Assembly (NCBI GenBank): GCA_903908245.1
Contig: CAIVRE010000009.1
Span: 677-64,676 of the forward strand
Direction: 5' to 3'
DNA length: 64,000 nt
Source: Candidatus Omnitrophota bacterium
GTDB taxonomy: Bacteria > Omnitrophota > Gorgyraeia > Zapsychrales > Fredricksoniimonadaceae
Made by a program: the position numbers and the translations under genes. Below the pieces are notes generated by a model. That model was not told the DNA's origin, searched no databases, and saw only the letters and a list, made by a program, of their open reading frames with translations. This document shows, one piece after another, positions 2,781-53,600 of the stretch; the first letter of the stretch is position 1, and the number at the start of each line of letters is the position of its first letter.

Positions 2781-2978
2781 TCAGGGTGTAACAAAAAAAG
2801 CCGAAAACTCAACAGGATCCATAAATGGCTGCAGGCTGATGATCTGGATGTCGAACCCCCGGAATAACTGAAGAGCCTGGGATGCGCGCATCGGCGAGAG
2901 ATGATCCAGGTCCCCGGAGACCCCATGATCCGGCTCAAAACGGATCTTGCGGGCCGTATCCGAAAGATCAACGCCGCC
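2781..2978 (-). other. Conserved C-terminal family module (~65 aa) of giant protein A
   Basis: GGVDLSD...L..LQ.F.GF...I.SLQPF is similar to the GGIDL...FNID..L..LQD..GFSPVI..I.P tails of the other three paralogs. Confidence 0.6.
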
Positions 2979-5900
2979 ATTCTCGTTTTGCGCGGCATTA
3001 TCCTGCGATGGATTATTGATCATTGCCAACCGTGAAAGGATCTGCTTGCGCAACGGGGTCATCCTAAAATTCTTTCTGGCGGAGATCTGACCGTATAAAC
3101 TTCTAAGCTGCTTCATATATACTGCGGGGTCAATAAATTCTTTTGCAGCACGCAATACTTCGATCTTCTTTTGGATCGCCTCAACCTCGGTTGCATACTG
3201 AAGATATTGCTGCGCCAGACCCGCGAGGACCGGGTCGCTTTCGGATGCCCGCCCGGAAACTTTCTTCGCAAACTCTTCTGTCCGCACAAAAACCTGACTA
3301 TTGACCTTTCGGATCTGTTTCCTGTGCATTTCAGGGATACTGGCCCCTTTTTCACCGCGTAATCCCTCGGCCATCTTTGTCAACACCCCGATCTCCGTCG
3401 CATATTCAGAATATTCTTGTGTCAGGCCCGAAACGACCGGATCATCCTTTGATCCCTGCCCCGCCGGAAGTTCTTCCTCCTGTTCAGACACCTTCACTTC
3501 CCCTCCCTGCGGCACACTCTCTGCCACAACAATGGGCTCTGCATTAGGGCCCACAACTTCCAATATCGGTCGTTTTTCGGGCAACGGCACCCCCGACAAC
3601 CATGGAAGGGACGTGGGGGATCCCCCCGCACCCAGGCCCAACAACCTGTTAACGGCCTCCACGTCCTGCGTTCCATTAATATGGATCAGCAATGCATCCC
3701 CCGGGTACGGCAGGGCAGCGTTAACCGTAAGGCTGTCCGGCACATTGCGCCTCTTGGCCTGGGAAAGCATTAGATAGAACGACCGGAAAAGATCAAAGGC
3801 GTCTGCCCTCTCACCCTCCTCATAATTATTTTGAATATCTGCCCATTCAGTCCGGATCTCGGGATAATCCTTGCTGATCTCACTTTCAGGTTTTACAAAA
3901 ACATTAAGGATATCATTAGTAAAATTAAGATACTTGAGCTGGCCGGCCAAACCCGTCTTTTTACCCAGTTGATCCAACAGATCGGTCACGGTCGCCACAA
4001 CCCTTGGCCCAAGGATCATAACGCCCGTTAATGCCGGGAACTGCTTCAACGTGTTATTCTTCAGATCATATTTCTCACGCAAATACTGTAATATTTTGCT
4101 GGGATGCACACTTTTCTCTTGATTTTCCTGCAACCGCCCAATATCCAGCTTCTCCAGGATCTCCCTGACGGGAGGCCGTGTCCGGGTAACATCAATATTA
4201 AGAAGGCCAAGGCCCTTTAACGCCTGCCCATCCACCCAATTGCCCAATAATCCGATATCCGTGCCCTCGAATCCCTGCATGGGGCCGAAATAGGCATCGC
4301 GGCTATAGATCAAAATGTGCCCGCCCCGTTCCGCCCCATGGCCAGGCCGCACCGGCTGCGAGGACGACTCGGAACACGGCCCGTTCATACACGCAGAAGT
4401 GCGATAACCGTTGATGACAGACCAGTCCAGGACACTGTCACTGCGCAACTCCCGGCTGCCGGCAAAAACAAACATCACTTTCAGATCACTCCACGGGATA
4501 CCCTTCAGATACGGATACCTGTCTGTAAAATCACTGTCCTGCAATCGGCTTTGAACAAACTGCACGGCCTCCAAATACGCATTCCCGCTTCCCTTTAATT
4601 GCGCAGGCAATACTTCAACCGGGACATCTTCCCTGAAAATACTTCCGCGACGGGAATCAACATACTGCTTAAGGCTGTCAACATCATCCGCATCCGGGTT
4701 CTCGGGAAGGATAACAAGCATGTCAATGCTTCTTTCATTCTCCGGCGCGATCTCCCAGCGCAGCTTCTTCATCCCGTCTTTCACGGCCAACTGAACACTA
4801 TTCTCATCGGAGCTGTTTAGCACACCAGCCGCAACCGATGCCCCCAACCTTCCACGCAGATCGGATACAAGTTTGTCGGTAACGCTCTTCATGGTCTTGC
4901 TCCACGACATTTGCATGATATTCGCATGCGGCACCCAGAAAATACCCATGCTGATCGCAACCGCCGCAATCCCTGCCAGAGATAACCCCATTGTCCCGGT
5001 CACACCGAACAAGACCATCACACCAAAGATCGTAAACCCGAAAGGCACTGAAAACAGCCGCAACCGGCTTATAAAACTGCGCATTTTATGATTATTCCGT
5101 GCCGTCAGCGACCCAAGGGAAGTTAAATTACTGGCATTCTTTATAACAGCCGACAATACACTTTTGCTCTGTTGCTCAATGTCCCCCGGATCCCCATAAA
5201 AAGACGGCATCAGGGTGTTGCCCTGCCGCAACAGGTCTGGCACCTCTTTCTTGATCTGTCGTTCAGACCTGGTCAACTGATAACTGTATAAAAGAGCCCA
5301 CCGCATAAATGGATAGATCTTGAAGCGCTCGGCCCAATGATCGTCCGCAAATTTATAATTCATTACTTTGTCTATGATCCCCCGATACTCCAGGATCCGC
5401 AAATACGTGGTGACATATTCCATCATTCGCGCCAGCGTCTCCGCATCGCCCAATAATTTCTGCTTCTGGTAATCATCCAAAGACGCATCATCCCTTTGAA
5501 GAAGATCATTCATGGCATTGATCGTGTCAATGGCCAGCAGATTAAAATGGCTCAACACCACCTGGTATCGTTCATTGAGGATCGGGTCGGACCCCTGCCT
5601 CAACATCAGTTCGGGAGTATACGGAGTCTTGCGAAGGATATCAAAAGCGCTGTTGAGAATAGCGTTAAGATCACTTAAAACAGCCTGCGGGCCTGGCTGA
5701 ACATGCCTCCATTGGGACACAAGAGTTCTCCAGCTCTGTAACGGCTTGATGACCGCCTCGTCAAGGCCCCTGTTCGGAATGATGACCACATCCGACGACA
5801 ATCCCTGGATATTAACCTTTCCATTCCCGTTGCCGCTTTCTGCAGCAAATTCCTGACGCAGCTCGCGGATCATGTCGCCGGTCTTGGCCATTTTTCTTAG

Positions 5901-8900
5901 GATATCTTTACGGATCTTCTTCGCGCCAACCCAGAAAAGAAGACCGCCGACCAGCGCCAGAACAAGTTGTGACGCCACGGTAAGCCTTGGAAAACCCTGA
6001 TCATTGCCGCTGATAACTCCGGAAAATTTATCCCTCAACCCGACAATGTCCCTGACCATATTGTTCGTTGTTTTATCTCCACGGGCACTTAACTGATCCA
6101 GATATTCATTCACTTCCTGCGGATCATTTGCAGATCCGATCCTTTGCTTTAACTCACGGATCAGGGCCTGTTCACGGGGCGTATAGGCTGCCTGGCCCGA
6201 TAACCAACGCATCTGATGATTTGCCCTCTCGGCGATCAGGTCCAACGCCAGACGCGTTGCTTCCACCTTGATCTGCTGCATACGAGGAGCCTCACCTCGC
6301 GGGTCGCTCGCCGCATGCAGTTCCGGCAGAGTATACGTTCCGAGACGGACGTTCAAAAGCCCTTTCTCACCGACGCGATCCGCCATCTTTTCCATGGCAT
6401 GCCTGTAAACATCATTAGAAGCCGGATTATCAACGGCCTGCACATCCGCACGCAAAATATCGACCCAATGACGGCTGTCCACCAGGTCTAAAAGCCCTTT
6501 ATCATTTGAACCGGCATAAACCTGCAACGCCATCATCCGTCCGAGAGCGGTCGTCATCAAACGGTCCAGGGCCATACCCCTCAGCGATGTCTGTGATCGA
6601 AGGATACGTGCGAGCTCGGGGATATTATTCGTCCGGGCGATCTGCCTCTTCTGATCCTCCAGGTTAAGTCCATTAAAATACGCCAACGACGACGTCCCCT
6701 GCCCCCCTGCCGCCGTAATGCCGCTTAAAAATGGATCCAACCCTGTTGCCGCACGACCATTCAATGAAACGAGTGTTCCCGCGGCGATCTTCGCCCTTTC
6801 GTATAATGCCGGTGCAATAAAATCCTTCATCTCTCTCCATCTTGGAGAAGTCATTAAAAACCGGCGGTCAGCGGAACTCCATTCCCGCAGCATCACCAAG
6901 GCACGAAGGTCCTTGTCAAAAACAACCGACGAAAGATTGGCGAATGGCCCGGGGTAAAAAACATCTTCCATATTGCCCAAAGCCTCGCGCCTCAGGATCT
7001 CGTCATAGATCAGGACGGCCAGGCCTTGCGGTACCGATCCCGCCTGGCCTTTAAGGGTGTTATAAGTTTGCGCCAACTGATCCGATGTCCAGTAATCACT
7101 CTGCAACAAGCGCGACCTGGCAACGGAATCTTCCGGCGCCCAGGAGAGGAAAGCCAACAAGGCACGACGGCCCGCACCTGACTGACCCTGTCCGGCCAAT
7201 TGCCCAACAGCACCGGGATCCTGGATGAGGATATCACTTAACATTTCAAAACCAACCCCTGCGACACCAGGTTTTCGCTGATCAATGGCCTTCTCGATCA
7301 CCTGCGTCAGGAACCGCACATCATGACCGTCCCGGTTGACCGCGAACTGCAAAAGATTTACCACCACTTCAGAGTAGGGCGAATTAAGAACGGCCTGTTC
7401 AATGCCGGACAGAGATCTCCGGTCATTCGAAAGCTCCTCTGTCAGGAGCTTCATCGCCTCTGCCCGGGCCCTGATATTGGAGTCCTGTGTCAGGATCCCT
7501 ACGGCGATATCGATCTGAGCTTGCCGTGGATCTCCGGCTTCCGGGTTACTCATCAAAGCCCATAAATTCGATCCGCTCTTCCCGTCCGAAACCCCCGGTA
7601 CGGGGTAGATCACTGCTCCGGCGGATAATACCCCGGGATCCTGACGCTTTGAATTCAGCCCCTGCTGCCCTGGACCGAAGCCGGACAGATCAAGGGTCAA
7701 TTGCCCTTCTCCAATATCTCCCGCGAACACACTGCCACCGGCAACGGCTGAAACAAGCTGTGGGGCGAACGCAGCCGCTCTTGTCCTCGACGGCCTCACC
7801 AGAGACTGGTCCTGTTTCATTACCTGGATCCGCCCCAAACGGGCCTCAGCCTTGAAATATTCCGCTTTAAGGTCGATCAGCCGTTCAAAGGCCTTTGCCA
7901 TCCGCTGATGCTCGTCGACCAGTTGATCTTTCCTGTAAAGATCCGGCCGTCCGGCTTTCTCCTGCCACGCGTTCAAGGCAGCCTTATGCTCGGCCTCTCC
8001 CTGTTCGATCTGACGGCTCAAGTCCCTGATCTCCGACACGGCTTTAGTGAATGCCTCACCAAGCTCTGCCTTGACGGTATCCAAATGAAGCTGGACCTTC
8101 GCCCTTTCCAAAAGCACGATCTCCTTGCGCGCATCCCTGCCGGAATCAAAGATAGGAAGTTCAAAATGTAGCGCCCCGTTGCCTCCTGTTGTCAAAGAAC
8201 TTGTCCTCATCTTTGACCCGGGAGAAAGATCATACAACGGATTGACCGCCTGCCCCTGGGATCCGGAAATGAAGAGCCCCGTCAGGTCCGCTGTCGGCAA
8301 ATATTCCGACCCCTGCAACTTGATCGTTTCTTCCACGGCAGCCCGGGCAACCTGCGCCCCCCGCAGCCGGTAATTGGGGCTGCCCTCTCCTGTCAATTGG
8401 TGCCGCAAGGACTCCTGTTGATCAGCGGCAATCGCCAGGAATTCTCCATCCCACAATAATTTCGGGGAAATATCCTCCTGCAATCTTTCAGCGGGCCGGC
8501 CCAGCATCTGGTTAAGCTCGATCGTCGATTGTTTCTTCTTGTTCTGCCAGCTCAACAGCTGCGCACGGAATTCGCCGGTCTGCTGGGCCAGAACATTAAG
8601 GTCAGAGGTAGTAGCAAAACCTCCCGCCTCCCTGGCCTTAAGCCCTTTTTGCGCCTCTTCCAGATCGGCAACCAGCGCCTGAAGCTGAACAATATGCTGT
8701 TGGGCACGTCCGATCTCAACGAACAGGGCCGTTGCATCGTTGACCTGTCCGGCAACCGCATCTTCCATATGATGCTGGGCGATCTGGGTCATTTTTAACG
8801 CCAGCGCTTTCTCTTTTAATTTCTTCCCTGAAACGACATCCATGATCTCGCCGGCCACACTAAATACAATCGGAGAAGCCGCGGCAATAGCATTACCGGT

Positions 8901-11900
8901 CGAAACACCGGCCATGACATCGTCAAAAACACCATTAAGCCCGCCGCTGAACGCCAGCTTGCCATTGTTGTTCACAAAAACACCGGCCTGTAAAGCCAGG
9001 CGGGAACTCCCCGACAAACGCTCCGACGCCTTGCTCTTAAGAACATCAATGGTCAACTCACCATTAAGAAAATTGTTCCCTGAGACCCGTGCAACCACCT
9101 CCGTAATATTCAAGTTCGCCGCGGGTTGAACAGGCAACCGCAGGAGAGCCTCCCCCATCTGCACAGGCAAAGGTTTAACCCCGGCCTCAGACGATCGAAA
9201 GACCAGCCGCGGATCCATTTGAGCCAGAACACCGTCTTGCTGTCTTGCAGTATTGATCCGGTCCTGTTCCGACTTCCCCAACGCTGCCAGAATAACGGGG
9301 CTTTCCGCCTCTGTCGGCACAATAATCTGAACCGGCAGGTTGACCCACAAAACGCCGTTCCTGTCTCCATCTACGATGACCGCGACAGCCTTGACAGGCC
9401 CGAGATCGATTTCCCGTCCCACAGGGGCCTCATTGACAGCAGATACCCTTCCCGCCAGGCGTTCACCGGACGGCGCCTGAACAAGAACGGGGTCTCCAAT
9501 TCCGAGCTTCACATCCTTCGGCAACAAGATAGCCGTATTCATATCATTAATATCACCGACCGTAACACGGCCTGTTCTTACCCTCAGAAGTTCGTCCCCT
9601 TTGGAGAATGATGACGAATGTTCCGAAAGGATCCCTGTAACAACGCCGCTTTCCGTCGCCACGACCCGAAGGCGGGATATCTGCCCCTGAAGCGTCAATA
9701 TCTGCGCCCGTAACGACGCCCTTCTGGCCTCTAACTCCGCCTCCTGGCCGCGAAGAGTATGCCGGACACCCGACCCATCCGGCCCGGCTTGCGCAAGCTG
9801 AGCCTGAATGCTGTTAAAAGCCTTGACCGCACCGCGATATTCCTCAAAGTATGATCCCTCCACAACCTCGGCGACTACCTGACCGGCCTCAACCCTGTCC
9901 CCCTCTTTAACAAAAAATTTTACAGGTCCGCGCGCGGGAGCTACCATGACCCGCTCTTCCAGCTTACGGACCATCGCAAGTGTCTGCGCCTGTCCACGAA
10001 CAGCATCAAAATTGGCCTGCGTCTTCAGCGGCGGAAATATTTCAGCCTCCACCTGAACCGTACTGTTCGGCGGGATCATCGAAGAAGTTGTAACAAGGAA
10101 CGAAACGATCGCCCCGGTCTTTTTCGGATTGAGCTGCCAATCAACGCTCACAATATTCTTGACCGGCTGGCCATCGATCCTGAAATTACGGATACGGCCA
10201 AAATATGTCTGAGTCACCGGGATCTCGATATTCAAACGAGCCCTTTGTCCGTAATAGTAACTGACGATATCCACACCCTTGTTCACCGTCATTCCATTAG
10301 CCACCAGAACCTCTTTAATGGAAAGGTCACACGGGGCTTTAACGGCTTCAACAGAACCCTTCTGATCAGCCTGGGCCAACTGCCTGCGAAGCTCATTGAT
10401 CCTTTCTTCCACCGGGGTGAGCTCTGCGACCGTCGCCCCGCCTTGAGCCTGCAGTCCCTTCAAAACCCTGTAGGTCCCTTCTTCGATAACCAACCGCCTG
10501 GCCAATCCTTCCCGTTGCTGCACTCTCTCAGGATCGATCAACGAAAAGATAATGTCTCCCTGCTTGTACTGTCCCTTGCTCTGGTCAAGGCCAAGGACAA
10601 TACCGCCAACCTGGGCCGTCAAACCAGCCTCGTCAAGGACAAGAGGGGTCTTCGCCGAGATCACATACGGCTTCACAAAGGCCATTTCTGCCTCGACCAT
10701 CTTGGCCACTCCGGCATCGGCATACTTTTGATCCGCAACACGGATAGCGGGTGACACCTCGACTGCGGGAGGATATTTGATCGGGACAGCCTTGGAGCTT
10801 GCCTCAGGAGCCGGAACAGCGGCAGGCACGAACAGTTTCTTGACGATCGTTCCATCCGATCGAGGATGAACATCGTGTTTTTCAACATTGTTCCCGCCAG
10901 GAAGGCCATATGACACAAAAGTGCCGGCCGGAAAGATCGTATAAATACCCTTACCTCCCTCATAACCTACCAGCAGCTTCGTGCTTTTCGTCAACGGGAT
11001 AAATCCCTGGATGTCAAGGTCCGCAACGATCGTCTCTTCTCCGGTCTCCCTGTTTATAAGAGTACCCGAAGCAACCGATCGCGTTTTGGTTCCCTGATGA
11101 AGTTCTGCATCCTGTCCTGGCTGCTCCAACACGATCGGTGTCACGCGCTCAACAATGGCGGGATGCGCCGGCCCAGGCAATGGATCATTACCGGTTATTG
11201 TACACCCGGAAGAAGTACACAATCCAGCCGACGCGGCGAGAACCAACAATAACTTTCTTGATACACCCTTTGGAAGCAAAGAGAACTTTAAACGAAAGAA
11301 ATTGCTGACCGGCAGGACTGTTTTACCAGAGAAGAACGAAACAGGCCGGAACTGGATCTTTTGCGCTGCATCTTCGAATGAAAACCCACCCGAAAAATAC
11401 CGCCTGGGCACTGCCTCCTGCTGACCGGGGTCATACTCCTCCCGGATCATGTCGTAAGCGCCCTGCTTGAGCGCCAGCATATACTGTTCATAGATACGCT
11501 GACTTGCGCCCCTGTCTTTTGTATCAATACCCGCTATTTTCTTCCGGCCAGCGTATATTTGATTAACAATATTGCTCTTAAGCTGGCGCTTGAACCAGAT
11601 CGCCAGTATCAATGCGTGATACATTTGACGCAACTGGGCGAACTGCGGGCCATCGTTCACTTCCCGTTCGATCTCCGGGATAATGATCTCGCGTGTGATC
11701 GTAGAGCACAATCCATTGATCTTTTCACGATCGCCGGCGGGTACCGCATTATCGGGGACGATCTTTTTCATGCTCAAATAGTCTTCATCGAGCAAAACTT
11801 TCAGACGGCTCCCGGAAATGAACGCAGCCCCATCTTTCTCATAAACAACAGCACTCTCGGGGATCACCCATACCTTGTTAACGGAATTCAGGGGGACATC

Positions 11901-12449
11901 AACATTGCCATATTGCTGCCTGATCTTTATGTAAACCTGTTCCCAGAATTTCTTTCCCAGTTCGTGCTCGGGATTGGTCATCGAAGCGGCGATCTGTTTC
12001 AGGAAGTAATCCTGTGTCAGCATGTCCTTCCCCGCCGTTGTCGCGCCAAAGACCGGATTGACGATACGGTCCGGCTCGGCCGGAGAAAGGTTGACCCAAA
12101 GGTCCTTTGCGGGAAATGTCAGGAACGTAAGAAAATATTTTATAAGCGACCTGGACTGTTCCTCATCCACTTGCGCATGACTCCCGGCATCAACGACAAA
12201 ATTGATCTTGAACGGGTCATTGGGATCAAGTGAGATGGCTTTGAGATTGGGGATAAAAGACGGGGGTGCTATGGATAATTCCACTCCTGGCGGAGGCGCC
12301 ATCACAATGCTTTGCGCGTGTGCCTCCCGAACACCCAGGATATCAAAAGAATAAACAAGCAATAACGCCCAGATCATACATTGGAACCATGGGCGCCCCC
12401 TTAAGGCAAGTGAAGGATTCAGTTTTCTCTCTCGGGTCAATTGACGCAT
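2781..12449 (-). CDS. Giant secreted multidomain protein, paralog A (3222 aa). N-terminal family module, internal signal/lipobox-like segment, two HlyD-type membrane-fusion modules, TolC-like outer-membrane-factor module, 3 predicted TM helices, family C-terminal module
   Basis: Uninterrupted 9.7 kb ORF. N-terminal module aa ~46-355 is homologous to the three other giant ORFs (DPFKINF, DLWVNLSP, GKKFW, LRQMY, PRRYFSGG). Real start may be the internal Met at ~12377 (MIWALLLVYSF...AHAQ signal peptide). Confidence 0.9.
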   Translation of the reverse strand: MRQLTRERKLNPSLALRGRPWFQCMIWALLLVYSFDILGVREAHAQSIVMAPPPGVELSIAPPSFIPNLKAISLDPNDPFKINFVVDAGSHAQVDEEQSRSLIKYFLTFLTFPAKDLWVNLSPAEPDRIVNPVFGATTAGKDMLTQDYFLKQIAASMTNPEHELGKKFWEQVYIKIRQQYGNVDVPLNSVNKVWVIPESAVVYEKDGAAFISGSRLKVLLDEDYLSMKKIVPDNAVPAGDREKINGLCSTITREIIIPEIEREVNDGPQFAQLRQMYHALILAIWFKRQLKSNIVNQIYAGRKKIAGIDTKDRGASQRIYEQYMLALKQGAYDMIREEYDPGQQEAVPRRYFSGGFSFEDAAQKIQFRPVSFFSGKTVLPVSNFFRLKFSLLPKGVSRKLLLVLAASAGLCTSSGCTITGNDPLPGPAHPAIVERVTPIVLEQPGQDAELHQGTKTRSVASGTLINRETGEETIVADLDIQGFIPLTKSTKLLVGYEGGKGIYTIFPAGTFVSYGLPGGNNVEKHDVHPRSDGTIVKKLFVPAAVPAPEASSKAVPIKYPPAVEVSPAIRVADQKYADAGVAKMVEAEMAFVKPYVISAKTPLVLDEAGLTAQVGGIVLGLDQSKGQYKQGDIIFSLIDPERVQQREGLARRLVIEEGTYRVLKGLQAQGGATVAELTPVEERINELRRQLAQADQKGSVEAVKAPCDLSIKEVLVANGMTVNKGVDIVSYYYGQRARLNIEIPVTQTYFGRIRNFRIDGQPVKNIVSVDWQLNPKKTGAIVSFLVTTSSMIPPNSTVQVEAEIFPPLKTQANFDAVRGQAQTLAMVRKLEERVMVAPARGPVKFFVKEGDRVEAGQVVAEVVEGSYFEEYRGAVKAFNSIQAQLAQAGPDGSGVRHTLRGQEAELEARRASLRAQILTLQGQISRLRVVATESGVVTGILSEHSSSFSKGDELLRVRTGRVTVGDINDMNTAILLPKDVKLGIGDPVLVQAPSGERLAGRVSAVNEAPVGREIDLGPVKAVAVIVDGDRNGVLWVNLPVQIIVPTEAESPVILAALGKSEQDRINTARQQDGVLAQMDPRLVFRSSEAGVKPLPVQMGEALLRLPVQPAANLNITEVVARVSGNNFLNGELTIDVLKSKASERLSGSSRLALQAGVFVNNNGKLAFSGGLNGVFDDVMAGVSTGNAIAAASPIVFSVAGEIMDVVSGKKLKEKALALKMTQIAQHHMEDAVAGQVNDATALFVEIGRAQQHIVQLQALVADLEEAQKGLKAREAGGFATTSDLNVLAQQTGEFRAQLLSWQNKKKQSTIELNQMLGRPAERLQEDISPKLLWDGEFLAIAADQQESLRHQLTGEGSPNYRLRGAQVARAAVEETIKLQGSEYLPTADLTGLFISGSQGQAVNPLYDLSPGSKMRTSSLTTGGNGALHFELPIFDSGRDARKEIVLLERAKVQLHLDTVKAELGEAFTKAVSEIRDLSRQIEQGEAEHKAALNAWQEKAGRPDLYRKDQLVDEHQRMAKAFERLIDLKAEYFKAEARLGRIQVMKQDQSLVRPSRTRAAAFAPQLVSAVAGGSVFAGDIGEGQLTLDLSGFGPGQQGLNSKRQDPGVLSAGAVIYPVPGVSDGKSGSNLWALMSNPEAGDPRQAQIDIAVGILTQDSNIRARAEAMKLLTEELSNDRRSLSGIEQAVLNSPYSEVVVNLLQFAVNRDGHDVRFLTQVIEKAIDQRKPGVAGVGFEMLSDILIQDPGAVGQLAGQGQSGAGRRALLAFLSWAPEDSVARSRLLQSDYWTSDQLAQTYNTLKGQAGSVPQGLAVLIYDEILRREALGNMEDVFYPGPFANLSSVVFDKDLRALVMLREWSSADRRFLMTSPRWREMKDFIAPALYERAKIAAGTLVSLNGRAATGLDPFLSGITAAGGQGTSSLAYFNGLNLEDQKRQIARTNNIPELARILRSQTSLRGMALDRLMTTALGRMMALQVYAGSNDKGLLDLVDSRHWVDILRADVQAVDNPASNDVYRHAMEKMADRVGEKGLLNVRLGTYTLPELHAASDPRGEAPRMQQIKVEATRLALDLIAERANHQMRWLSGQAAYTPREQALIRELKQRIGSANDPQEVNEYLDQLSARGDKTTNNMVRDIVGLRDKFSGVISGNDQGFPRLTVASQLVLALVGGLLFWVGAKKIRKDILRKMAKTGDMIRELRQEFAAESGNGNGKVNIQGLSSDVVIIPNRGLDEAVIKPLQSWRTLVSQWRHVQPGPQAVLSDLNAILNSAFDILRKTPYTPELMLRQGSDPILNERYQVVLSHFNLLAIDTINAMNDLLQRDDASLDDYQKQKLLGDAETLARMMEYVTTYLRILEYRGIIDKVMNYKFADDHWAERFKIYPFMRWALLYSYQLTRSERQIKKEVPDLLRQGNTLMPSFYGDPGDIEQQSKSVLSAVIKNASNLTSLGSLTARNNHKMRSFISRLRLFSVPFGFTIFGVMVLFGVTGTMGLSLAGIAAVAISMGIFWVPHANIMQMSWSKTMKSVTDKLVSDLRGRLGASVAAGVLNSSDENSVQLAVKDGMKKLRWEIAPENERSIDMLVILPENPDADDVDSLKQYVDSRRGSIFREDVPVEVLPAQLKGSGNAYLEAVQFVQSRLQDSDFTDRYPYLKGIPWSDLKVMFVFAGSRELRSDSVLDWSVINGYRTSACMNGPCSESSSQPVRPGHGAERGGHILIYSRDAYFGPMQGFEGTDIGLLGNWVDGQALKGLGLLNIDVTRTRPPVREILEKLDIGRLQENQEKSVHPSKILQYLREKYDLKNNTLKQFPALTGVMILGPRVVATVTDLLDQLGKKTGLAGQLKYLNFTNDILNVFVKPESEISKDYPEIRTEWADIQNNYEEGERADAFDLFRSFYLMLSQAKRRNVPDSLTVNAALPYPGDALLIHINGTQDVEAVNRLLGLGAGGSPTSLPWLSGVPLPEKRPILEVVGPNAEPIVVAESVPQGGEVKVSEQEEELPAGQGSKDDPVVSGLTQEYSEYATEIGVLTKMAEGLRGEKGASIPEMHRKQIRKVNSQVFVRTEEFAKKVSGRASESDPVLAGLAQQYLQYATEVEAIQKKIEVLRAAKEFIDPAVYMKQLRSLYGQISARKNFRMTPLRKQILSRLAMINNPSQDNAAQNENGGVDLSDTARKIRFEPDHGVSGDLDHLSPMRASQALQLFRGFDIQIISLQPFMDPVEFSAFFVTP
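11384..12311 (-). other. Conserved N-terminal family module of giant protein A
   Basis: Aligns by eye with the N-termini of ORFs 15127-17514, 19215-22448 and 50492-55183. Confidence 0.8.
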
Positions 12450-15126: not shown

Positions 15127-15318
15127 TTACTTCTGCTCGTTCAACCCTAAAAACAACCTCAGATCACTCATCGGCTCAATATTGATGATAACCGGCGAAA
15201 AACCCAGAGTGTCCTGAAGTTCCTGTAACTTCACCTGATCAATATTGAACTGCAGCCCATCACCCGAACCTCGTGTTTCCACGCTCAAACGTTCCGCCGT
15301 CAGGTCAATACCACCTTT
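15127..15318 (-). other. Conserved C-terminal family module of paralog B
   Basis: KGGIDLTAERLSVETRGSGDGLQFNIDQVKLQELQDTLGFSPVIINIEPMSDLRLFLG. Confidence 0.7.
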
Positions 15319-17514
15319 GGTGGCGTCCACCTTCCCCTCAGGAACCTTGGGGATCGAAGACTTCTCCAGATACGCGTTCAACGTATTGATCAACCGTTTT
15401 GTCAACGGAGCCAGGGCTGCAGGGCGAACTCCCTCTCTCACAGGCAAAAGCAACTGCCGTCCAACCTTAAAAAAATACTCTTCTATTACTGTCAGGTCTT
15501 CCGATCGGATATATCGCTCAACATCCTGAAGTATCTTTATTCCTTTACCGTCCTTAAAATACGGATGTTCCAACAAGGCATCAAAAAAACAGAAATCATC
15601 TTCGGAAATTGCCCCTTCAGGCAAATCCCTCGCGCCATACTGGGCCAAAAGGATGGCTAAAAACAAAAGCTCATGCCTGGCTGAATCCGGCTCCCCGTTG
15701 ACCGATAAACGCTTGTTGCCAATATCGACCATAATGACTTCCTCTGAAGGCCCCCTGACAATGAAATTCCGGCCATGCATATCCTTCGGCAGGATCCCAT
15801 GCAGGGCTGCTGCAATGGTCAGCAAGGTGCTCGTAACCTTCTTCTTAAGGGTAATGGTCAATTTCTTTTCCTGGGCATATTCTTCGATCGTTCGCCCTTC
15901 GATAAACTCTTCCACATAAACAACCCTGCCGCCTTCAGAAACAAATAACCCGCCCCATTGCGGAACGCCCCGGCCGTTCAATTGCCTCAAATTATTCGTT
16001 TCATGAGACCCTATGTCCTTTTGATTTTTCGCCCTTTTAACGGCCAGAAGAATATAAAAAGACCCGCCTTCTTTTAACGTGAATTGCATTTTGTAAACAT
16101 ATTTAAAAGCCCCTTCACCTGCGAATGAGACCGACACTTTTTCATCCAGATCATCCAGGTGTAAATTCGGGTGCTTGCTGATATTCTTTAGAAATTGCAA
16201 TAAAAGGCTCGGCTTCACCTTCTCGAACATTTCCATGGAAACGCTCAGCATATCGCCATAGATCTCTGTCCTCTTTTGATCTGTCTCCGCTATCAGAGGC
16301 CTCTGCACATCAACCCGAAAATGCGGTGCCTCTGCCCCTGGGTTGACAAGATCGTTTGTCGCCTCTGCCCGGTCAAAGCGTGACTGAACGACAGATAACG
16401 CACCCCGTGAATTCCTGTCATCGATCATGCTGCCGTCCGCAATAACTGTCATTGACAGATCGGTAAGCTGGGAATAATTCACCCCTCCCGAGAAATACTT
16501 CCGCGGGATAAGCTCACCGGAGACCGTATCTTGCTCCTCCTTGATAAGATCATAGGCGCCCTTCTTGAACGCCTCGACATACTGCGCCCAGATCTTCTCC
16601 GACTCCAAAGGATCATTAATATTGACACCCTCGACCTTGTTACGGTCAACATACACCAGGGACAAGACGCTCTGTTTGATCTTTTTCTTGAACCATGCCG
16701 CCAGGATCAACGACTGATAAACCTGACGTAACTTGGCAAAATTCTTCCCCTCATTGACCTCTTTCTCAAGCTCAGGGAGAACGATCGCACGGATCACATT
16801 CTTGGCCAGTTCCTGGGATTCCTTAACGGCTCCGGAAGCTTCACTACCTGCCCCAGTTGTGACCGAATTATTCAAGGCCACATAATCGCTTTCAAGCATG
16901 ACCTTGAGGCGGCTCTCAACCACATACGCCGTCCCGGCCTTGGCATTCTCATAGACCACGGCCTTCCCGGGAATAATCCAGACCTTATTAAACGTATCCA
17001 CCGGGATATCGGTGGTGCCATATTTCTCCTGCGCCTTTTTGTAAACCGCGGCCCAAAACTTTTTGCCTGTTTCGCCCTCGGGATAAATGACGGACGCTGT
17101 GATCTGTTTGAGAAGATAGTCCTGCGCCAAAAGATCCCGGCCCATTTCTGTCCGGCCGAACGCATCCGGCACAATACGGTCTTTTTCATAAGGGCTAAGA
17201 TTCACCCAAAGATCTTTCTCGGGAATAGTCAAAGACGCCATGAAATACCGGATCAGCCGCGCAGACTCCTCTTTGAGCTGATCGGACGAGTCCGGGAAGT
17301 TCCCTTTATCGAGAATAAAATCAAACCGTAATGGATCGGCAGGATAAACCTTGATGCCTTTGAATACCGGCGGCGCAAAAGGCGCGCTTAAAGACACCAT
17401 GGAACCAGGTGCAGGAAGAACAACGCTCTGGGCGTAAGAGGCAGGCACACTCGCGGCCACGAAGGCTATCAGCGTAAACGCTAAAATGAGTCTTTTTAAA
17501 AACCCCTTTATCAT
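15127..17514 (-). CDS. Giant-family secreted protein, paralog B (795 aa): N-terminal family module, protein-kinase-fold domain, C-terminal family module
   Basis: Signal peptide (..AASVPASYAQS); N module aa 31-345; kinase-like region aa ~455-660 (FAGEGAFKYVY, AVKRAK, DMHGRN, VDIG); C module aa 732-795. Confidence 0.9.
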   Translation of the reverse strand: MIKGFLKRLILAFTLIAFVAASVPASYAQSVVLPAPGSMVSLSAPFAPPVFKGIKVYPADPLRFDFILDKGNFPDSSDQLKEESARLIRYFMASLTIPEKDLWVNLSPYEKDRIVPDAFGRTEMGRDLLAQDYLLKQITASVIYPEGETGKKFWAAVYKKAQEKYGTTDIPVDTFNKVWIIPGKAVVYENAKAGTAYVVESRLKVMLESDYVALNNSVTTGAGSEASGAVKESQELAKNVIRAIVLPELEKEVNEGKNFAKLRQVYQSLILAAWFKKKIKQSVLSLVYVDRNKVEGVNINDPLESEKIWAQYVEAFKKGAYDLIKEEQDTVSGELIPRKYFSGGVNYSQLTDLSMTVIADGSMIDDRNSRGALSVVQSRFDRAEATNDLVNPGAEAPHFRVDVQRPLIAETDQKRTEIYGDMLSVSMEMFEKVKPSLLLQFLKNISKHPNLHLDDLDEKVSVSFAGEGAFKYVYKMQFTLKEGGSFYILLAVKRAKNQKDIGSHETNNLRQLNGRGVPQWGGLFVSEGGRVVYVEEFIEGRTIEEYAQEKKLTITLKKKVTSTLLTIAAALHGILPKDMHGRNFIVRGPSEEVIMVDIGNKRLSVNGEPDSARHELLFLAILLAQYGARDLPEGAISEDDFCFFDALLEHPYFKDGKGIKILQDVERYIRSEDLTVIEEYFFKVGRQLLLPVREGVRPAALAPLTKRLINTLNAYLEKSSIPKVPEGKVDATKGGIDLTAERLSVETRGSGDGLQFNIDQVKLQELQDTLGFSPVIINIEPMSDLRLFLGLNEQK
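16479..17421 (-). other. Conserved N-terminal family module of paralog B
   Basis: About 70 percent identical by eye to the paralog C module; motifs YPADPLRFDF, DLWVNLSPYEKDRIVP, EMGRDLLAQDYLLKQ, GKKFW, TTDIPVDTFNKVWIIP, RLKVMLESDY, LRQVYQSLILAAWFKKK, PRKYFSGG. Confidence 0.85.
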
Positions 17515-19214: not shown

Positions 19215-19418
19215 TTACAGACCGCCTGCGGCGTTCGGCTGAATTCCCAGGAACTGTTGTAAACTTTCCGCCGGAAGTATCGACATGATCACCGGGGAAA
19301 ATCCTTCCGCGTCCTGCAGTCGCTGAAGCATGACCGGATCGATATTAAATGTAATCTCCCCGCCCTGATTGCGCACCACCAACCCCAGCTTGTCCGCGTT
19401 AAGATCGATACCACCTTT
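19215..19418 (-). other. Conserved C-terminal family module of paralog C
   Basis: KGGIDLNADKLGLVVRNQGGEITFNIDPVMLQRLQDAEGFSPVIMSILPAESLQQFLG. Confidence 0.7.
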
Positions 19419-22400
19419 GGTGTCTCCTGTTGGCAAATGCCCGACAGGCACCGCACTACCAGCCGAAGACAACAAACTATCAGGGACTTGATAATCAGAC
19501 CGCAAAAGACCCATTGCTTTAAACACATCACAATAAAAACCAACATCCTTATCTGACATGCCGTCAAACATAAAATTCCTTCTTCCCGACCCATAGCCCT
19601 GGAACAACCAAGCCATCACCTCTTTACCCAACCGCTCATCAGACCCGATGGTGCGATTACTGAGAATATCGGCAAGAACATCCCCGTATGTCCCGCTGAT
19701 CCTGTTCTTTAATACCTCCCATTTACCTGCACTCTGAAGTCGTTGTAGCATGTTAAGAACGATTTCCGGGGACTTTTGCTGATAAGCATGCAATAACTCA
19801 TGCAGGATCGACGCCTTTGTCTCTTGTCGAATATATTCTGCAGCGACACGATACGGATCCCTGTTCATCGAACGCGCCTCGAGAGCGATCTTGTCAACAA
19901 CATCGCCCCTCTTATTGATCAACGCAGCGCCTATGGCCATATTCAACATCTGTTCTTTGCTTTTGAAAATAGGGCGGAAACAAATCCCCGTCGCAGGATC
20001 AAAGAAAAAGAACGGGGTTGCGCTCATGTTCAATTGCATGAATGCCCCGCCATTCCCGACAAACGGCGCTTTCTGAAAACTCTCAGGATCTTTGATATTG
20101 ATGCCCAACTTCTCCAACAGATCCCCGAGCACAGGATTGGCAAGCGCCTCTCCACGGGCCTGACGAAGATATTCCTCCTGCCCCTTCTCGCCGAACACAT
20201 CCAAATGCCCTTCAGGGATCTTGTCATTACTGGCAATATAACCGGTCAAGCCATTGCCTTTACTTGCAGGAACTTTTATTGAATTTCCATTAAGTCCATC
20301 GAGAACAGATAAGACGCTCCCCAATTCTTTTGTGATACCCGGGCCCAATTCTCCTCTGTTGTTCGGTGCAAGCGGCGCTCCATCCCGACTAAAAGAACCG
20401 ATCCCCGCAGACTCTCCGGTCCAGCTCACCGCCACTGGCGATCCAAATGCAAGATAATTCTGCAGTCCCGTCATCCCTATAAAAGCCGTACCTTGAGGAG
20501 CCGCCTTCAAACGCTCTCTCAGACCATTCACGGCCGATTTATACTCTTCAATTGTTTGTTGGGCCTCCTTGATCTGCGCATTAATGAACTCAATGAAAGC
20601 CCCCATTCTCGCTTGAACAACATACGGGCGTCCGTCGGGTGTTCGATCGTATTGAAACCCATTCAATAACTGTCCCGTACGTCCCAGGGCTTCCGGACTG
20701 ATCCCGGACTCTAAATAACCTTTGGCCCAATCAAGGAATTTTTGAGACTGAAGCAGATCAACACTCATACTCGACATTTGATGCAAATACCCCCTCACAT
20801 TCCCAACGGGGTCTGCGAGCTCTTCATCAAAAATAACACGCACGGACTTTCCGTTCGATGAAGTGAACCTGAACCCGCCTTGAGTGCTCATCTGCCCATT
20901 GATATCCGCCGATCTTGGCACAAGAATGACCCGCCCACCCATCCGGCGATCAACCTGAAAAGTCACCACAAAGTCACCATCAAAGATCACCCCTGAGAAA
21001 CCATTATTCAAGATCAACTTTGCCTTGTGTCCCGTATATTGAAGCATGTTATCGCCTAAAGTTGCAACAGACAGGGCCCCATCCCTATCCAACTCAACCC
21101 GGTTAAGATACTGATCCCATCCCTCGGATGCTCTGCCATTGGCCCGGAGAACTCCTTCATTAAGACCCCCCTGAAACACGACCCTGTCGCGTGCTATTTC
21201 CTGGCTCCCGGCAACAGCAGCACTTCCAGGATCTTTGGCCGCCTGGACCACCCCAGCAATGCCCGCATTGGCATTATTAAATGTGGTAAGCGTCATCGAG
21301 ACGACCAACATCCCGAGGAATGCCGCCCGCGAGAACCCCCCGGTCATTTGCGCCGGGCTTGCCGTCACATTCAACACCGGCGACATCGCGAAGTTCACTC
21401 CACCCGAGAAATACTTCCGCGGGATCATCTCGTCGGCGTAAACATCCCGTTCTTCTTTGATGTAATTGAACGCACCCTTCTTGAACGCCTCAACGTAACG
21501 ACCCCAGATCTTTTCCGACTCCTTCGGGTCATCAATGTTGACCCCCGCGACCTTTTTCTGGTCGACGTAAACCTTGCTAAGAATGCTCGCCTTCACCTTT
21601 TTCTTATACCAGGCCGCCAGGATCAGCGATTGATACACCTGGCGCAACCGCGTAAAGTTCCTGCCTTCATTGACCTCTTTCTCAAGCAAAGGAAGGACGA
21701 TCTCCCGGATAACATTCTTGGTGAGTTCCTGCGTTTCCGGCACAACACCATTGCCTGAAAGCTCTGGCGCCTTCACCACCGCATTATCCAGCGCAACATA
21801 ATCGCTCTCCAGCATGACCTTGAGCCTGCTGGCAACAACAAAAGCCTTATCCCCGTTCTCAAAGACCTCGGCCTCGGCAGGAACGATCCAGACTTTATTA
21901 AAAGTGTCCACGGGAATGTCCGTTGTGCCGTACTGCTCGGCCGCTCTGCGATAAACCTCGGCCCAGAATTTTTTGCCTGCTTCACTCTCGGGATAAATGG
22001 CGGATGCGGTCACCTGCTTGAGCAAATAGTCCTGCGCCAGAAGATCGCGCCCCATCTCGCTCCGCCCGAATTCATCAGGGATGATGCGGTCTTTCTCGTA
22101 AGGCGAAAGGTTCACCCACAGATCCGTCTCGGGAACGGTCAGGCTGGCCAGAAAATATTTGATCAACCGGTTCGATTCGTCTTTTAATTCAGCACCAGGA
22201 TACACGGAATCACCTTTATCCAGAAGGAACTCGAAGCGGAACGGATCGTCGGGATGGACCTTGATTCCTTTAAGGACAGGCGGATTAAACGTTGAGCTTA
22301 ACTCAACCCGACTACCCGGTGCCGGTAAATACAAGGCACCCTGAGCATATGCATCGGGAACGATCTGGGCAAGGACCAATAAAAAAGAAAGGGCGCTGAC

Positions 22401-22448
22401 TGCGCCCTTTCGAAGAAAGCTGTAAATGCTTCCCGTCTTATTCATCAT
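19215..22448 (-). CDS. Giant-family secreted protein, paralog C (1077 aa): N-terminal family module, hydrophobic segment, beta-rich region, HELLHxxQQ zincin-like motif, C-terminal family module
   Basis: Signal peptide (..VPDAYAQG); N module aa 37-350; HELLH encoded at 19788-19802 (checked at nucleotide level); C module aa 1010-1077. Confidence 0.9.
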   Translation of the reverse strand: MMNKTGSIYSFLRKGAVSALSFLLVLAQIVPDAYAQGALYLPAPGSRVELSSTFNPPVLKGIKVHPDDPFRFEFLLDKGDSVYPGAELKDESNRLIKYFLASLTVPETDLWVNLSPYEKDRIIPDEFGRSEMGRDLLAQDYLLKQVTASAIYPESEAGKKFWAEVYRRAAEQYGTTDIPVDTFNKVWIVPAEAEVFENGDKAFVVASRLKVMLESDYVALDNAVVKAPELSGNGVVPETQELTKNVIREIVLPLLEKEVNEGRNFTRLRQVYQSLILAAWYKKKVKASILSKVYVDQKKVAGVNIDDPKESEKIWGRYVEAFKKGAFNYIKEERDVYADEMIPRKYFSGGVNFAMSPVLNVTASPAQMTGGFSRAAFLGMLVVSMTLTTFNNANAGIAGVVQAAKDPGSAAVAGSQEIARDRVVFQGGLNEGVLRANGRASEGWDQYLNRVELDRDGALSVATLGDNMLQYTGHKAKLILNNGFSGVIFDGDFVVTFQVDRRMGGRVILVPRSADINGQMSTQGGFRFTSSNGKSVRVIFDEELADPVGNVRGYLHQMSSMSVDLLQSQKFLDWAKGYLESGISPEALGRTGQLLNGFQYDRTPDGRPYVVQARMGAFIEFINAQIKEAQQTIEEYKSAVNGLRERLKAAPQGTAFIGMTGLQNYLAFGSPVAVSWTGESAGIGSFSRDGAPLAPNNRGELGPGITKELGSVLSVLDGLNGNSIKVPASKGNGLTGYIASNDKIPEGHLDVFGEKGQEEYLRQARGEALANPVLGDLLEKLGINIKDPESFQKAPFVGNGGAFMQLNMSATPFFFFDPATGICFRPIFKSKEQMLNMAIGAALINKRGDVVDKIALEARSMNRDPYRVAAEYIRQETKASILHELLHAYQQKSPEIVLNMLQRLQSAGKWEVLKNRISGTYGDVLADILSNRTIGSDERLGKEVMAWLFQGYGSGRRNFMFDGMSDKDVGFYCDVFKAMGLLRSDYQVPDSLLSSAGSAVPVGHLPTGDTKGGIDLNADKLGLVVRNQGGEITFNIDPVMLQRLQDAEGFSPVIMSILPAESLQQFLGIQPNAAGGL
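21398..22337 (-). other. Conserved N-terminal family module of paralog C
   Basis: See paralog B; near-identical motif set. Confidence 0.85.
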
Positions 22449-30121: not shown

Positions 30122-30128
30122 AACATTA

Positions 30129-34497: not shown

Positions 34498-34525
34498 CAC
34501 GATCCTCCCGACAGCCCCTGATCGG

Positions 34526-50491: not shown

Positions 50492-50683
50492 TTAATTAAC
50501 GCCCGCTCCAAAGAACCGGGGAAAACTTTCCAACGGCTTTATACTATATATGACAGGGGTCAATCCCGGGGCATCCTGATAAACTTTAAGCTCTTCAGGG
50601 CTGATGTTGAAATAAAAACCACCAGCCTGTCCCTGGACCTTCATATCCATCGTCCCGGCGCCAAGGTCAATACCGCCCTTCTC
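50492..50683 (-). other. Conserved C-terminal family module of paralog D
   Basis: KGGIDLGAGTMDMKVQGQAGGFYFNISPEELKVYQDAPGLTPVIYSIKPLESFPRFFG. Confidence 0.7.
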
Positions 50684-53600
50684 GGCCTCATCCAACGGCG
50701 CATCAACACGAATGGACTCAGCCTCAGGCCCAAACCCGGGAAGGTCCAGCTGGAGATAACGGGTCGGATTATCCGCGCTGTCTTTTAACGGATATAAGCG
50801 CTGAAGGGCTCCCTCGGCATCCTTCAAAGACACCCCCCACCATTCCTCCAAAAGCTCCTCATCCCCGGGCTTAACCCCATCTTCCGGGATCTCCTCCCCC
50901 CTGAAAATAGTCCAGGACGGAACACTCCTGAAGCCCATCTTATATAATATTTTCCCGGATCGATGGCTGACCGGATTGGCCGCCACATCCGCATTGATCC
51001 CCATTACCGCAGAACGGGATACCGCCTCTTCCAGCGTCTTCAAGAACAATATCTCTCCCAAACGCTTCCCCCTGAGATCAGGGACAACTTCCAGCAGGGA
51101 CAAGACATACCTCTCCTCAACATACCCGCGCCTAGAAGGAAGGCCTCCCCAAAGATGCGACAACGAGAGGCCGACCAAACTTCCGCCGGAACGCACCTCA
51201 ACAAGGAACGCGCCCGGGGCATGGGCTTTGATCCTCCAGAATTCAATATTCAAACTCCCGAAATCTTTATTGATGGCAAGCCACTCCGACACCATCTTTT
51301 CGATCTGCTCCTCGCCATCGATCGGCCTCATCGAAAACTTCTCGCCGGAGGCCATCGTGATATCAACAACCCCATTCTCTTTCTTTTCAACCGAGACCGA
51401 TGCGGCAGGATCAACGCTCTCCGCCGGACGCCAGCTCAAAAGCGATAACTGCGCGTCAAAACGGCCTTTCGATGCCTTTAAAATGTGCTCCCTGAAGCCT
51501 GCCTGCATGACAGCTGATCCAAACGGCGGCGTAGTTGCGACAAACTCCTCTAATCGGGGCAATCCTTTATGCTTGCGGGAAATCTGTTTGTAAAGGACTA
51601 CAAAATCCCTCATCTTCTGCAATTCCCGATTCGCAATGTTTGTCAACGGCTTGCCGTCCATGACCAGATCCATACTTGAACGGAACAAGGGGAACTCGTC
51701 GATCCATCGTTGAAGGTCCTGTGCCGCCATACCTTCCGGCGACCCTGGCCTTGAGGTGTCACAGAAGTTCTTCACTCGGATATCACCGATGATCCTGGAG
51801 AACAACTCCACGGCAAAAAGCGGATTAACAATATCCGTAACTTTCACAAACCTGACCTCGGGAGGCAACGCCTTCAAAAATCCTCCAAGAATGCCCTCTC
51901 CCTGCAGATCCGCATTGATATCTACCCTGTTTATCTGGATCCCGAACTCGCCGGGCCTTAAACCAAACCCATGATCAAGCCATTTCAGCCGATGGATGGA
52001 CCCCGCGGATCCGCCTGACACTCCATCGGACCCAACCGGTTTAATGACAAAACTTCGAAACTCCATCCCCTCCCTGCCCGGATCTTCCTGCAAACGGTAC
52101 GTCCGGCCTTTTTTATCCTCAAACACTAACTTTTCCAGACTATTCACCGTCATCGCACGATCCCCCGCCCTTCGCAATGATAATGAAAAGAAAGGCACTT
52201 TTCTGAGCGGCTCGGCCAATACCGCCAAAGCTTTTAAGCCGGCGTCTCCATCGAAAGCTCCGGCGGCGTACTTGTACGAAAGCCAGTCAAGATAAGAAGC
52301 CATTGGAACTGTCGCCGGGCTTGTATCCCATGAGACAGGCGCGGGGACCTCCAGCGACCGGGCTCGCCACCCCTCAAAGATATCCAGCCCTACACCCAGA
52401 TAAAAACGTAATGTCCTGACCGGATCACCGCCAACTGCCGTTGCGAATATCTGCACGACCGGCACACGGACCTCCCGCACTCCGCTCGCTTTCACTACAG
52501 CGGCCCTGTACACCTCATACAATTCCCGTGCTGAAAATTTCCTTGCGTCCCCTCGGAACTCGGGAAGAAGGTCAAAGGCAAGATCCGGCGGAAATCCATC
52601 AAGCTTCTCATCAATGCCATACGCCACCAACTGTTCTTGCACTGCGGTCTCCCTGCTGCGGCCATGTCCCGTAAAATACATCAAAGACAACGTCCTCTGT
52701 GCGGCGTACGGACTGAATACCGGAAGGCGCACAAGCCGGACCGTTCCCCCCGTTACCATAATTCTTGCTTCCAAGACCTTCTTTCCGCGTGCCAAAGCGG
52801 TCCGAACAGCCGTAAAATAACCGCGCGCGAACCTACTCCCCAAAGCAGGGGTTGTCTCGCGATATGCCAAAGACCGGATATACACTTCGAACCCGGAGAC
52901 CGCCTTGCCGGCATCTTTTGGCGTTAGCGAATTAAAATTGATCCGTTTTGATAATAAAATAAGCCGCTCGACCCGTTTCTGCCTGAAACCCGCCGAACCC
53001 GCTGATGCCTCTTCTTTTTCCTTCTGATAATCCTGAAATGTCACCCCTTGCGGACCCGAAGGCTCCTGAATGCTTTGGGAAGGATCAGCCAAAAGCAGGT
53101 CAGCAGCCTCTGCCTTCTGCGCCTCACCACTTAATTCCCCAAGGCGAAGCATCTGCCTGGAAAGAATATCCGCAACCTGCCCGTAGTGATCCCCAAGGTC
53201 TCTTCGCCTTCCTTTGACATAAAAAGCGGAAATACGGGATATGATCCCGTTCGCCCTGCCGATCTCCGCGATGACCGTTTCGATCGCGTCAAAACCATAT
53301 TGTCCCCTAAGCCTCTCCCGCTCATTCTCATCTTTATCCTGGGCACCGCGCAAACCGTAAGCTCGCTCCACCTGCGATGCCTGCTCCAACAGGCTCCCCA
53401 GCCTCCGGCCTAACCCCGGGACCACCTGATCGAGAAGATCCAGGTTATACCCGATGATCGATCCATTGGTTGGTAACCACGAAAGAGCCATCCCGCTGAT
53501 AAAAGTACGGCCAAATAATGTTTGACGGAGCTGCGAATTCGCAAGGCCGCCCCACCCGGACTCGGGACCGGTCTGCCTCAAAAGATTCAACGTCTCCGGC

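Follow-up and report, generated by a model that had tools for sequence, protein, structure and literature searches.

A single HELLH motif in a secreted modular protein of an Omnitrophota bacterium probably marks an undescribed zinc-hydrolase-like domain. The protein, here called paralog C, is one of four paralogues encoded in the window (the whole stretch of 64,000 nucleotides that was analysed), and the domain takes up the C-terminal half of a variable cargo of about 560 residues. The more specific proposal, that residues from about 774 to 1003 form a very rare and so far undescribed metallohydrolase domain of the HExxH...E kind, we regard as the likeliest reading, at about even odds on the sequences at hand. 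An earlier, sequence-only reading had assigned the motif to DUF4157 (PF13699) and had drawn from it, together with the shared terminal modules, an effector-like role. Neither the family membership nor the role is supported by the analysis below.

The HELLH motif and its gene

The region 19568-20048 lies entirely within one minus-strand open reading frame. Its translation confirms what had been read from the letters, HELLH at 19788-19802 (minus strand, residues 883-887) followed by AYQQ (19776-19787, residues 888-891). The translation at the motif region (reverse strand) is ETKASILHELLHAYQQKSPE, and a further excerpt is AAEYIRQETKASILHELLHAYQQKSPEIVLN. The gene and the parts of it that bear on the motif are as follows.

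19215..22448, minus strand: complete ORF of paralog C, 1077 aa, the same as database protein P0001 except for the choice of start Met
19776..19802, minus strand: HELLHAYQQ motif, residues 883-891, with H883, E884, H887 and Q890 invariant in the homologue P0004
19440..21128, minus strand: cargo module, residues 441-1003, homologous to P0004 residues 743-1342 (alignment A1)
19440..20129, minus strand: C-terminal domain of the cargo, carrying the HExxH; residues 774-1003 (alignment A2, 29% identity)

Could such a short motif have arisen by chance? HELLH is the sole HExxH of paralog C, a protein poor in His (7 of 1077 residues, 0.65%). From its composition 0.003 HExxH motifs are expected per protein, and only 0.19% of 20,000 shuffles of the sequence contained one. 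The 15 other cargo regions of the host family, about 14,700 aa in total, have no HExxH. Because the protein is His-poor, the motif is rare in shuffles and the sister cargoes lack it, the HELLH of paralog C is well beyond chance. Only one more HExxH turns up in the 28 large ORFs of the window, the HEAGH of a Pfam-verified M48 peptidase (47819-49462). The same gene, with 1 nt different and in the same synteny, is found on an independent ENA metagenome contig; the 90% cluster of paralog C consists of a one-residue variant, found on ENA metagenome contigs with the same gene neighbourhood, and a fragment.

A single relative of the cargo

An exhaustive phmmer search with residues 727-1000 against 1.84 billion cluster representatives returned one credible relative, P0004 (E 2e-13, 30% identity). 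This protein of 2509 aa comes from a JGI metagenome contig, of a metagenome other than that of paralog C, and has housekeeping neighbours. The whole cargo of paralog C aligns with it by BLASTP at 25% identity over 614 columns (E 4e-33), and identity between the two cargoes ranges from 25 to 30% across comparisons. P0004 belongs to the same superfamily, with an N-module that is 32% identical and a GGIDF near the protein end. The other searches returned little. A word-indexed search with the paralog C cargo gave its self-match alone, and those with A1 and with the P0004 segment gave no matches; neither A1 nor A2 detected any relative in scans of metagenome contigs, and tblastn against plasmids and phages found no match. 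Within the 18 loci of the host family that are described below, tblastn and hmmsearch placed the cargo in L018 alone, and it was absent from all other family members examined.

Two further points were considered and set aside. P0005, a repeat protein of 1981 aa, reached E 2e-4 over 8 stretches against query residues 165-218; it has no HExxH, and the match was rejected as repeat-inflated and of low information. A foreign origin of the cargo was also considered; GC is ordinary across the gene and gives no sign of recent acquisition.

Which residues have been kept between two such distant sequences? In A2 the motif reads ILHELLHAYQQK in paralog C and MAHEFVHFLQDQ in P0004, where the string is HEFVHFLQDQ, and H883, E884, H887 and Q890 are invariant. 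In this pair of sequences, then, HExxH is conserved together with a Q three residues past the second His. The cargo of paralog C has 5 His and the P0004 segment 7, and the two histidines of HExxH are the only ones they share; the others are kept at 0 of 3 and 0 of 5 positions, respectively. Elsewhere in the cargo alignment Asp and Glu are poorly kept as well (2/33 and 5/30). Since the motif is beyond chance and conserved along with its Q, a zincin-like metal site is a reasonable reading.

Conservation of this kind bears on the simplest alternative, that the HExxH arose by chance, has no function and persists in P0004 merely through shared ancestry of the helix. Just two sequences are available for judging it, and external family support of any kind is missing, as this alternative would have it. 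Still, it has to face the rarity in shuffles, the four motif residues that are invariant against a background identity of 26%, and the poor conservation of the other His, none of which is kept, and of most acidic residues. We hold it to be very improbable. The sequence-only reading had named the joint lack of profile support and of conservation in orthologs as the mark of a chance motif; the first was indeed found, in that no profile matches, yet the motif is kept in P0004.

Third ligand and fold

Which residue would complete a metal site? Gluzincins, for example thermolysin (M4) and neprilysin (M13), combine HExxH with a distal Glu, and an HExxH on a helix with a conserved Glu downstream is their classical pattern. 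A Glu or His 20-40 residues past the motif had been proposed as the place to look. No Glu, His or Asp is conserved in that interval of A2, between paralog C and P0004, and the nearest candidate, E943, stands at +56.

19605..19625, minus strand: KEVMAWL, residues 942-948, containing E943, candidate third metal ligand

Past the motif, E943 (codon 19620-19622, minus strand) is the only acidic residue that is invariant between the two sequences of A2, and it lies 56 residues after H887. Around it K169, E170, M172, A173 and L175 (A2 numbering) are invariant and form a K-E-x-M-A-x-L patch. Known gluzincins include spacings of about 55-60 residues from HExxH to the Glu ligand, as in the neprilysin family M13. 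An aspzincin-like reading, with the Asp of GTYGD as ligand, was rejected, as this Asp is not conserved in P0004.

The suggested check against profiles of the zincin clan came back empty: hmmscan matched no zincin family with the whole protein (E<=1) or with three segments (E<=10). With the whole protein, segments and a two-sequence profile as queries, there was likewise no zincin-family match in Pfam (E<=10), NCBIfam (E<=10) or the PDB (phmmer and hmmsearch, E<=10). AlphaFold2 models of the domain are of low confidence, with pLDDT 41.3 from one sequence and 44.3 from two. Both low-confidence models have two very short strands (the PFFFFDPATGICF region) followed by helices, and both place the motif and E943 inside long helices. 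A Foldseek search of the PDB with the better of these low-confidence models retrieved designed helical repeats and 14-3-3 proteins, all at E>1, and these matches were set aside as meaningless.

One alternative is that the conserved His, Glu and His have a non-zincin role, either as a structural or regulatory metal site or in some other hydrolytic chemistry, on an unrelated helical fold. The empty zincin searches agree with this, and so do the almost all-helical, low-confidence models, with two very short strands where zincins normally carry a sheet of 3-5; the sister cargoes, too, are non-protease enzymes. However, the helical HExxH with a conserved Glu downstream is just the pattern of gluzincins, and E884 is invariant, as for a catalytic base, which a purely structural site does not need. 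We consider the alternative rather unlikely.

Under the preferred reading of an HExxH...E metallohydrolase domain, the HExxHxxQ helix together with E943 (in KE.MA.L) would most likely build a gluzincin-type mononuclear zinc site. H883 and H887 would bind the metal, E884 would act as general base and activate the water, and E943, which falls on a later helix, may be the third ligand, as its standing as the single invariant Glu suggests. The domain would thus be a metallohydrolase and probably a metallopeptidase.

The host protein family

Paralog C is built from a signal peptide, two conserved end modules and the cargo between them, and three further genes of the window share this plan in whole or in part.

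22341..22448, minus strand: predicted Sec-type signal peptide, residues 1-36 (heuristic hydropathy scan)
21369..22340, minus strand: conserved N-module, about residues 37-360 (about 325 aa), 43-66% identity to the three window paralogues
19218..19424, minus strand: conserved C-terminal 'GGIDL' module, residues 1009-1077 (about 65 aa), family-wide
15127..17514, minus strand: paralogue in which the two end modules flank a cargo with weak kinase-like similarity
50492..55183, minus strand: paralogue in which the two end modules flank another, different cargo (weak GNAT match)
2781..12449, minus strand: paralogue of 3222 aa that shares the N-module, has a degenerate copy of the C-module and contains HlyD/TolC-like segments

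The predicted signal peptide combines a basic n-region and hydrophobic core with an AYA|Q site, and the hydropathy scan predicts a Sec-like signal peptide in all four paralogues and in P0004. BLAST detects the C-terminal module in three of the four window paralogues; the copy in the 3222-aa ORF is degenerate. That the paralogues share their N and C modules, as the sequence-only reading had proposed, proved to be real, and the modules are common to the window and to loci elsewhere. A scan of species-representative genomes gave 17 loci, in 16 Candidatus Omnitrophota MAGs and one uncultured Planctomycetales MAG, and with L018 added to these the N-module occurs in 22 further proteins from 18 loci. 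The family counts at least 26 Omnitrophota proteins and is characterised by a Sec signal, the N-module, a variable cargo and the C-terminal GGIDL module. All further members with a complete 3' end close with the C-module, [KT]GGIDL...PVI.I.P...FLG, except a short ORF of L010. The GG[IV]D[LF] core appears exactly once per complete member; its distance from the C-terminus is about 55-80 residues in most members and 134 in P0004. The genes often stand in tandem.

Between the end modules, the cargo regions are mutually unrelated. In the 18 loci they include PPDK_N with PEP-utilizer and HEAT repeats, TPR repeats, transketolase with histidine phosphatase, and HAD/UPF0489, and half of them have no Pfam match at all. 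For the N-module itself, even a profile of 26 sequences (alignment A4) matched neither a Pfam family nor a PDB entry, and a text search of the literature found no description of an N-module/GGIDL family. It may be observed on its own that a family so widespread and multi-copy in Omnitrophota MAGs stands outside the coverage of Pfam and the PDB.

Where would the domain act? The signal peptide, N-module and C-module suggest a common route of export or anchoring. Because it is carried by a Sec-exported modular protein, the domain would act outside the cytoplasm, be it in the periplasm, at the surface or after secretion. The order of parts is a signal peptide, an N-module of about 325 aa, the exchangeable cargo and a GGIDL module of about 65 aa. 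Counting against the zinc-hydrolase reading is that many sister cargoes resemble enzymes of cytoplasmic type. A transmembrane helix after the N-module, which would put the cargoes in the cytoplasm, was considered; a hydrophobic segment occurs there in a minority of members, and the idea was dropped as not general. An internal TAT-like signal in paralog C was dropped as well, since BLAST fails to align it with the TAT-like segment of P0004.

Genomic context

If paralog C were an effector of an extracellular contractile injection system (eCIS) or a polymorphic toxin, what would be expected nearby? The window around the gene is of housekeeping character, with LpxB, an MFS transporter, NDH-2, glutathione peroxidase, PPK2, BatA-D, fatty-acid synthesis and PFOR. 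Pfam found no sheath, baseplate, spike or eCIS ATPase in the 27 neighbouring ORFs of the 64-kb window, in a scan mostly of ORFs of at least 250 aa, which small tube proteins could escape. Among the ORFs scanned there were no T6SS components, toxin domains or immunity-like genes either, and the gene immediately downstream of paralog C codes for an MFS transporter, not for an immunity protein. The variable region lies in the middle of the protein, with the conserved GGIDL module as a cap at the C-terminus. Sister cargoes gave no matches to toxin families; what they matched was transketolase, PPDK, His_Phos_1, kinase-like, HAD, HEAT and TPR domains. With variation in the interior of the protein, no immunity gene adjoining and sister cargoes that are enzymes of metabolic type, the effector idea of the sequence-only reading finds no support.

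Comparison with PF13699

PF13699, formerly DUF4157, is now named eCIS_core and has a Pfam gathering score of 22 bits. Does the motif place paralog C in this family? There is some likeness: in both, HExxHxxQ(Q) lies on a helix after small or hydrophobic residues, and both are putative Zn-metallopeptidases in large multidomain proteins. For comparison, ten plasmid-encoded proteins annotated as DUF4157, each Pfam-verified as PF13699, were aligned (alignment A3); H, E, H and the first Q of HExxHxxQ(Q), a motif expected at the C-terminal end of the PF13699 domain, are invariant in all ten. This feature is present as HELLHAYQQ in paralog C, with the P0004 string given above as its counterpart. The profile itself, which had been proposed as the check, did not recognise the domain. 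No PF13699 match was found by hmmscan in the whole protein (E<=1), in three segments of it (E<=10) or in P0004 (E<=0.1), whereas the ten members of A3, as positive control, gave E-values between 2e-31 and 1e-34 with the same tool.

A comparison of profiles by hhalign, A2 against A3, covered 15 columns, those of the motif helix alone, with a score of 31.8 and a probability of 43.9%. The M48 peptidase of the window, used as control against A3, gave 12 columns, a score of 24.2 and a probability of 8.8%. As the control also aligns its HExxH helix, most of the signal between A2 and A3 is that of any HExxH helix, with a modest extra from the Gln. Forced, greedy extension of the alignment added columns with near-zero posterior confidence. 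The beta-rich stretch of about 60 residues that precedes the motif in PF13699 (VRvH...ArAfT.G.dI.F...P...G) was not matched by paralog C in hhalign of A2 against A3 and is unrecognisable there. DUF4157 is a core marker of eCIS and usually lies at the N-terminus of toxins or adjoins them (Geller et al. 2021, PMC8213781). Neither association with an eCIS operon nor a place at the N-terminus before a toxin domain holds for paralog C, which has no toxin domain and whose HExxH-bearing domain lies at residues 774-1003 of 1077. With no profile match, an alignment of 15 columns and neither eCIS feature in place, membership in DUF4157/PF13699 is not supported by these sequences.

Might the domain still be a highly divergent member of PF13699 (eCIS_core, the PVC-metallopeptidase), recruited into an Omnitrophota modular protein? 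The common signature speaks for it, as does an hhalign result above that of an unrelated zincin, the M48 control, and the forced extension sets the SDERLGKEVMAW region opposite the E-x-EA patch found behind the motif in several PF13699 proteins, at near-zero posterior confidence. Such a history assumes that about 60 helical residues were inserted between a beta-rich N-terminal half and the HExxHxxQQ helix. It also has to accommodate that 15 of about 80 domain columns align and that neither sequence matches a profile which true members meet with ease; the domain sits near the wrong end of the protein for an eCIS toxin, and no eCIS genes appear among the ORFs scanned over 64 kb. From the motif to the candidate third ligand there are about 56 residues in paralog C, against about 20-35 to the E-x-EA patch in several PF13699 members. 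We judge this origin improbable. The HExxHxxQQ string alone is insufficient for calling DUF4157/eCIS_core or for inferring an injected toxin.

Implications

What would an HExxH...E domain in this protein mean? If it is real, the domain of paralog C would be a family-level variant of HExxH metallohydrolases, as judged from two sequences. A true metallohydrolase would found a new and extremely rare family, with two clusters among the 1.84 billion representatives, and would extend the extracellular enzyme repertoire proposed for Omnitrophota, an uncultured and possibly predatory phylum. A bolder proposal is that it represents a new zincin family confined to Omnitrophota-like bacteria, serving as one exchangeable 'tool' of a so far undescribed system for export or display that the N-module and the GGIDL module define. 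The protease could then cut surfaces of prey or host, or it could mature sister modular proteins at linker motifs. Were this so, the N/C-module scaffold would be a new architecture for cargo delivery in a phylum whose members are suspected to live as predators or parasites. At present we think this proposal distinctly unlikely. A more intriguing lead than the HExxH domain is the way in which the host family is built, from an N-module, a variable cargo and a GGIDL C-module.

Comparison with known systems

Among known enzymes, gluzincins offer a close likeness to the putative site, in an HExxH with invariant Glu, one conserved Glu that falls on a predicted helix further along and an M13-like spacing. 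They differ in that no sequence or profile similarity extends past the motif and that the domain of paralog C is much smaller and, by prediction, mostly helical; in place of the E-x-x-x-D signature of the third ligand, it has K-E-x-M-A.

At the level of the whole protein, two kinds of systems come to mind. Polymorphic toxin systems (Zhang et al. 2012, PMC3482391) resemble the host family in their trafficking-like conserved ends, in a variable region that can be swapped and in several paralogues per genome, sometimes in tandem. In the host family, however, variation is internal, the C-terminus is formed by a conserved module, and adjacent immunity genes, cassette arrays and cargoes of known toxin domains are missing. 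The other kind is the long or giant secreted multi-enzyme proteins of Omnitrophota (West-Roberts et al. 2023, bioRxiv 10.1101/2023.11.21.568195; 2026, bioRxiv 10.64898/2026.06.07.730766). A text search of these papers found no description of an N-module combined with a C-terminal GGIDL module. The host family shares with the giant proteins the phylum, the N-terminal signal peptide, large unannotated stretches and heterogeneous enzyme domains (PPDK_N, HEAT, TPR, HAD, GNAT, kinase, peptidase). It differs from them in size, 0.8-3.5 kaa against more than 10 kaa, and in its surroundings: members of the host family lie among housekeeping genes, whereas the giant proteins are encoded next to T2SS or pilus loci.

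A modular protein family with variable cargoes

Paralog C, the 1077-aa protein with the HELLH motif in its cargo, belongs to a multi-copy protein family of Omnitrophota, with at least 26 members in the window and the fetched loci L001-L018, whose genes are often in tandem. The members in the window are as follows.

2781-12449, family member
15127-17514 (-), family member, neighbouring paralogue of paralog C
19215-22448 (-), paralog C
50492-55183, family member

Each member has a predicted Sec signal, followed by a conserved N-module of about 325 aa, for which no match was found in Pfam or PDB, then a cargo that has no relation to those of other members, and finally a strictly C-terminal module of about 65 aa, which starts with [KT]GGIDL and ends with ...PVI.I.P...FLG. 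No description of this N-module/GGIDL family was found in the literature searched.

What do the sister proteins carry? Their cargoes are typical cytoplasmic-type enzymes, yet N-terminal signal peptides are present (L002:4317-8081, L006:11069-13888, L004:8579-10282 and L009:11213-14200). Among the cargoes are PPDK_N with a PEP-utilizer domain and HEAT repeats, transketolase with histidine phosphatase, TPR repeats, and HAD/UPF0489. Half of the 10 cargoes scanned had no Pfam match. The cargo of the neighbouring paralogue (residues about 466-614) gave weak protein-kinase-like matches in NCBIfam (MAD6 kinase, E 8e-5; Bud32, 0.007) and Pfam (ABC1, 0.048), all far under their respective curated cut-offs.

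Other features of the window

47819-49462 (-), genuine Peptidase_M48 in fusion with a zinc ribbon of the TFIIB type, motif HEAGH
28274-34629 (-), aerotolerance-like BatA-BatD/VWA/DUF58 operon, which encodes TPR and BatD proteins
22387-22411 (-), strong terminator-like hairpin, 10-bp stem with 7 GC pairs, then a T-run

The HEAGH is the only further HExxH among the large ORFs of the window, and this Peptidase_M48 was used as the control when the HExxH region of paralog C and P0004 was compared by hhalign with the DUF4157 profile (PF13699). The Bat-like operon is an ordinary feature. The hairpin lies within the part of the paralog C gene that encodes the signal peptide (codons about 13-21), and could be a chance occurrence or an attenuator-like element.

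Cargo boundaries

A short D-x-A-M motif occurs at 0.58 per kaa in family proteins against a background of 0.17, an enrichment of about 3.5 times. It clusters at both cargo edges, right after YFSGG at the end of the N-module and right before GGIDL, and could therefore serve as a linker or processing site or mark a recombination boundary. Paralog C itself has no D-x-A-M motif.

In P0004, a 2509-aa metagenome protein, the cargo common to this protein and paralog C is directly preceded by an internal segment that resembles a TAT signal.

P0004 (L018), residues 689-715, TAT-signal-like segment: SRRDFLK, hydrophobic stretch, VNA site
Paralog C, 21261-21353, residues 366-396, FSRAAFLGMLVV...NANA at a comparable position

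The P0004 segment scores 19.6 bits with Pfam TAT_signal, below the cut-off of 22.7, and BLAST gave no alignment between the two segments. The TAT-like segment may be a relic of a formerly stand-alone exported protein.
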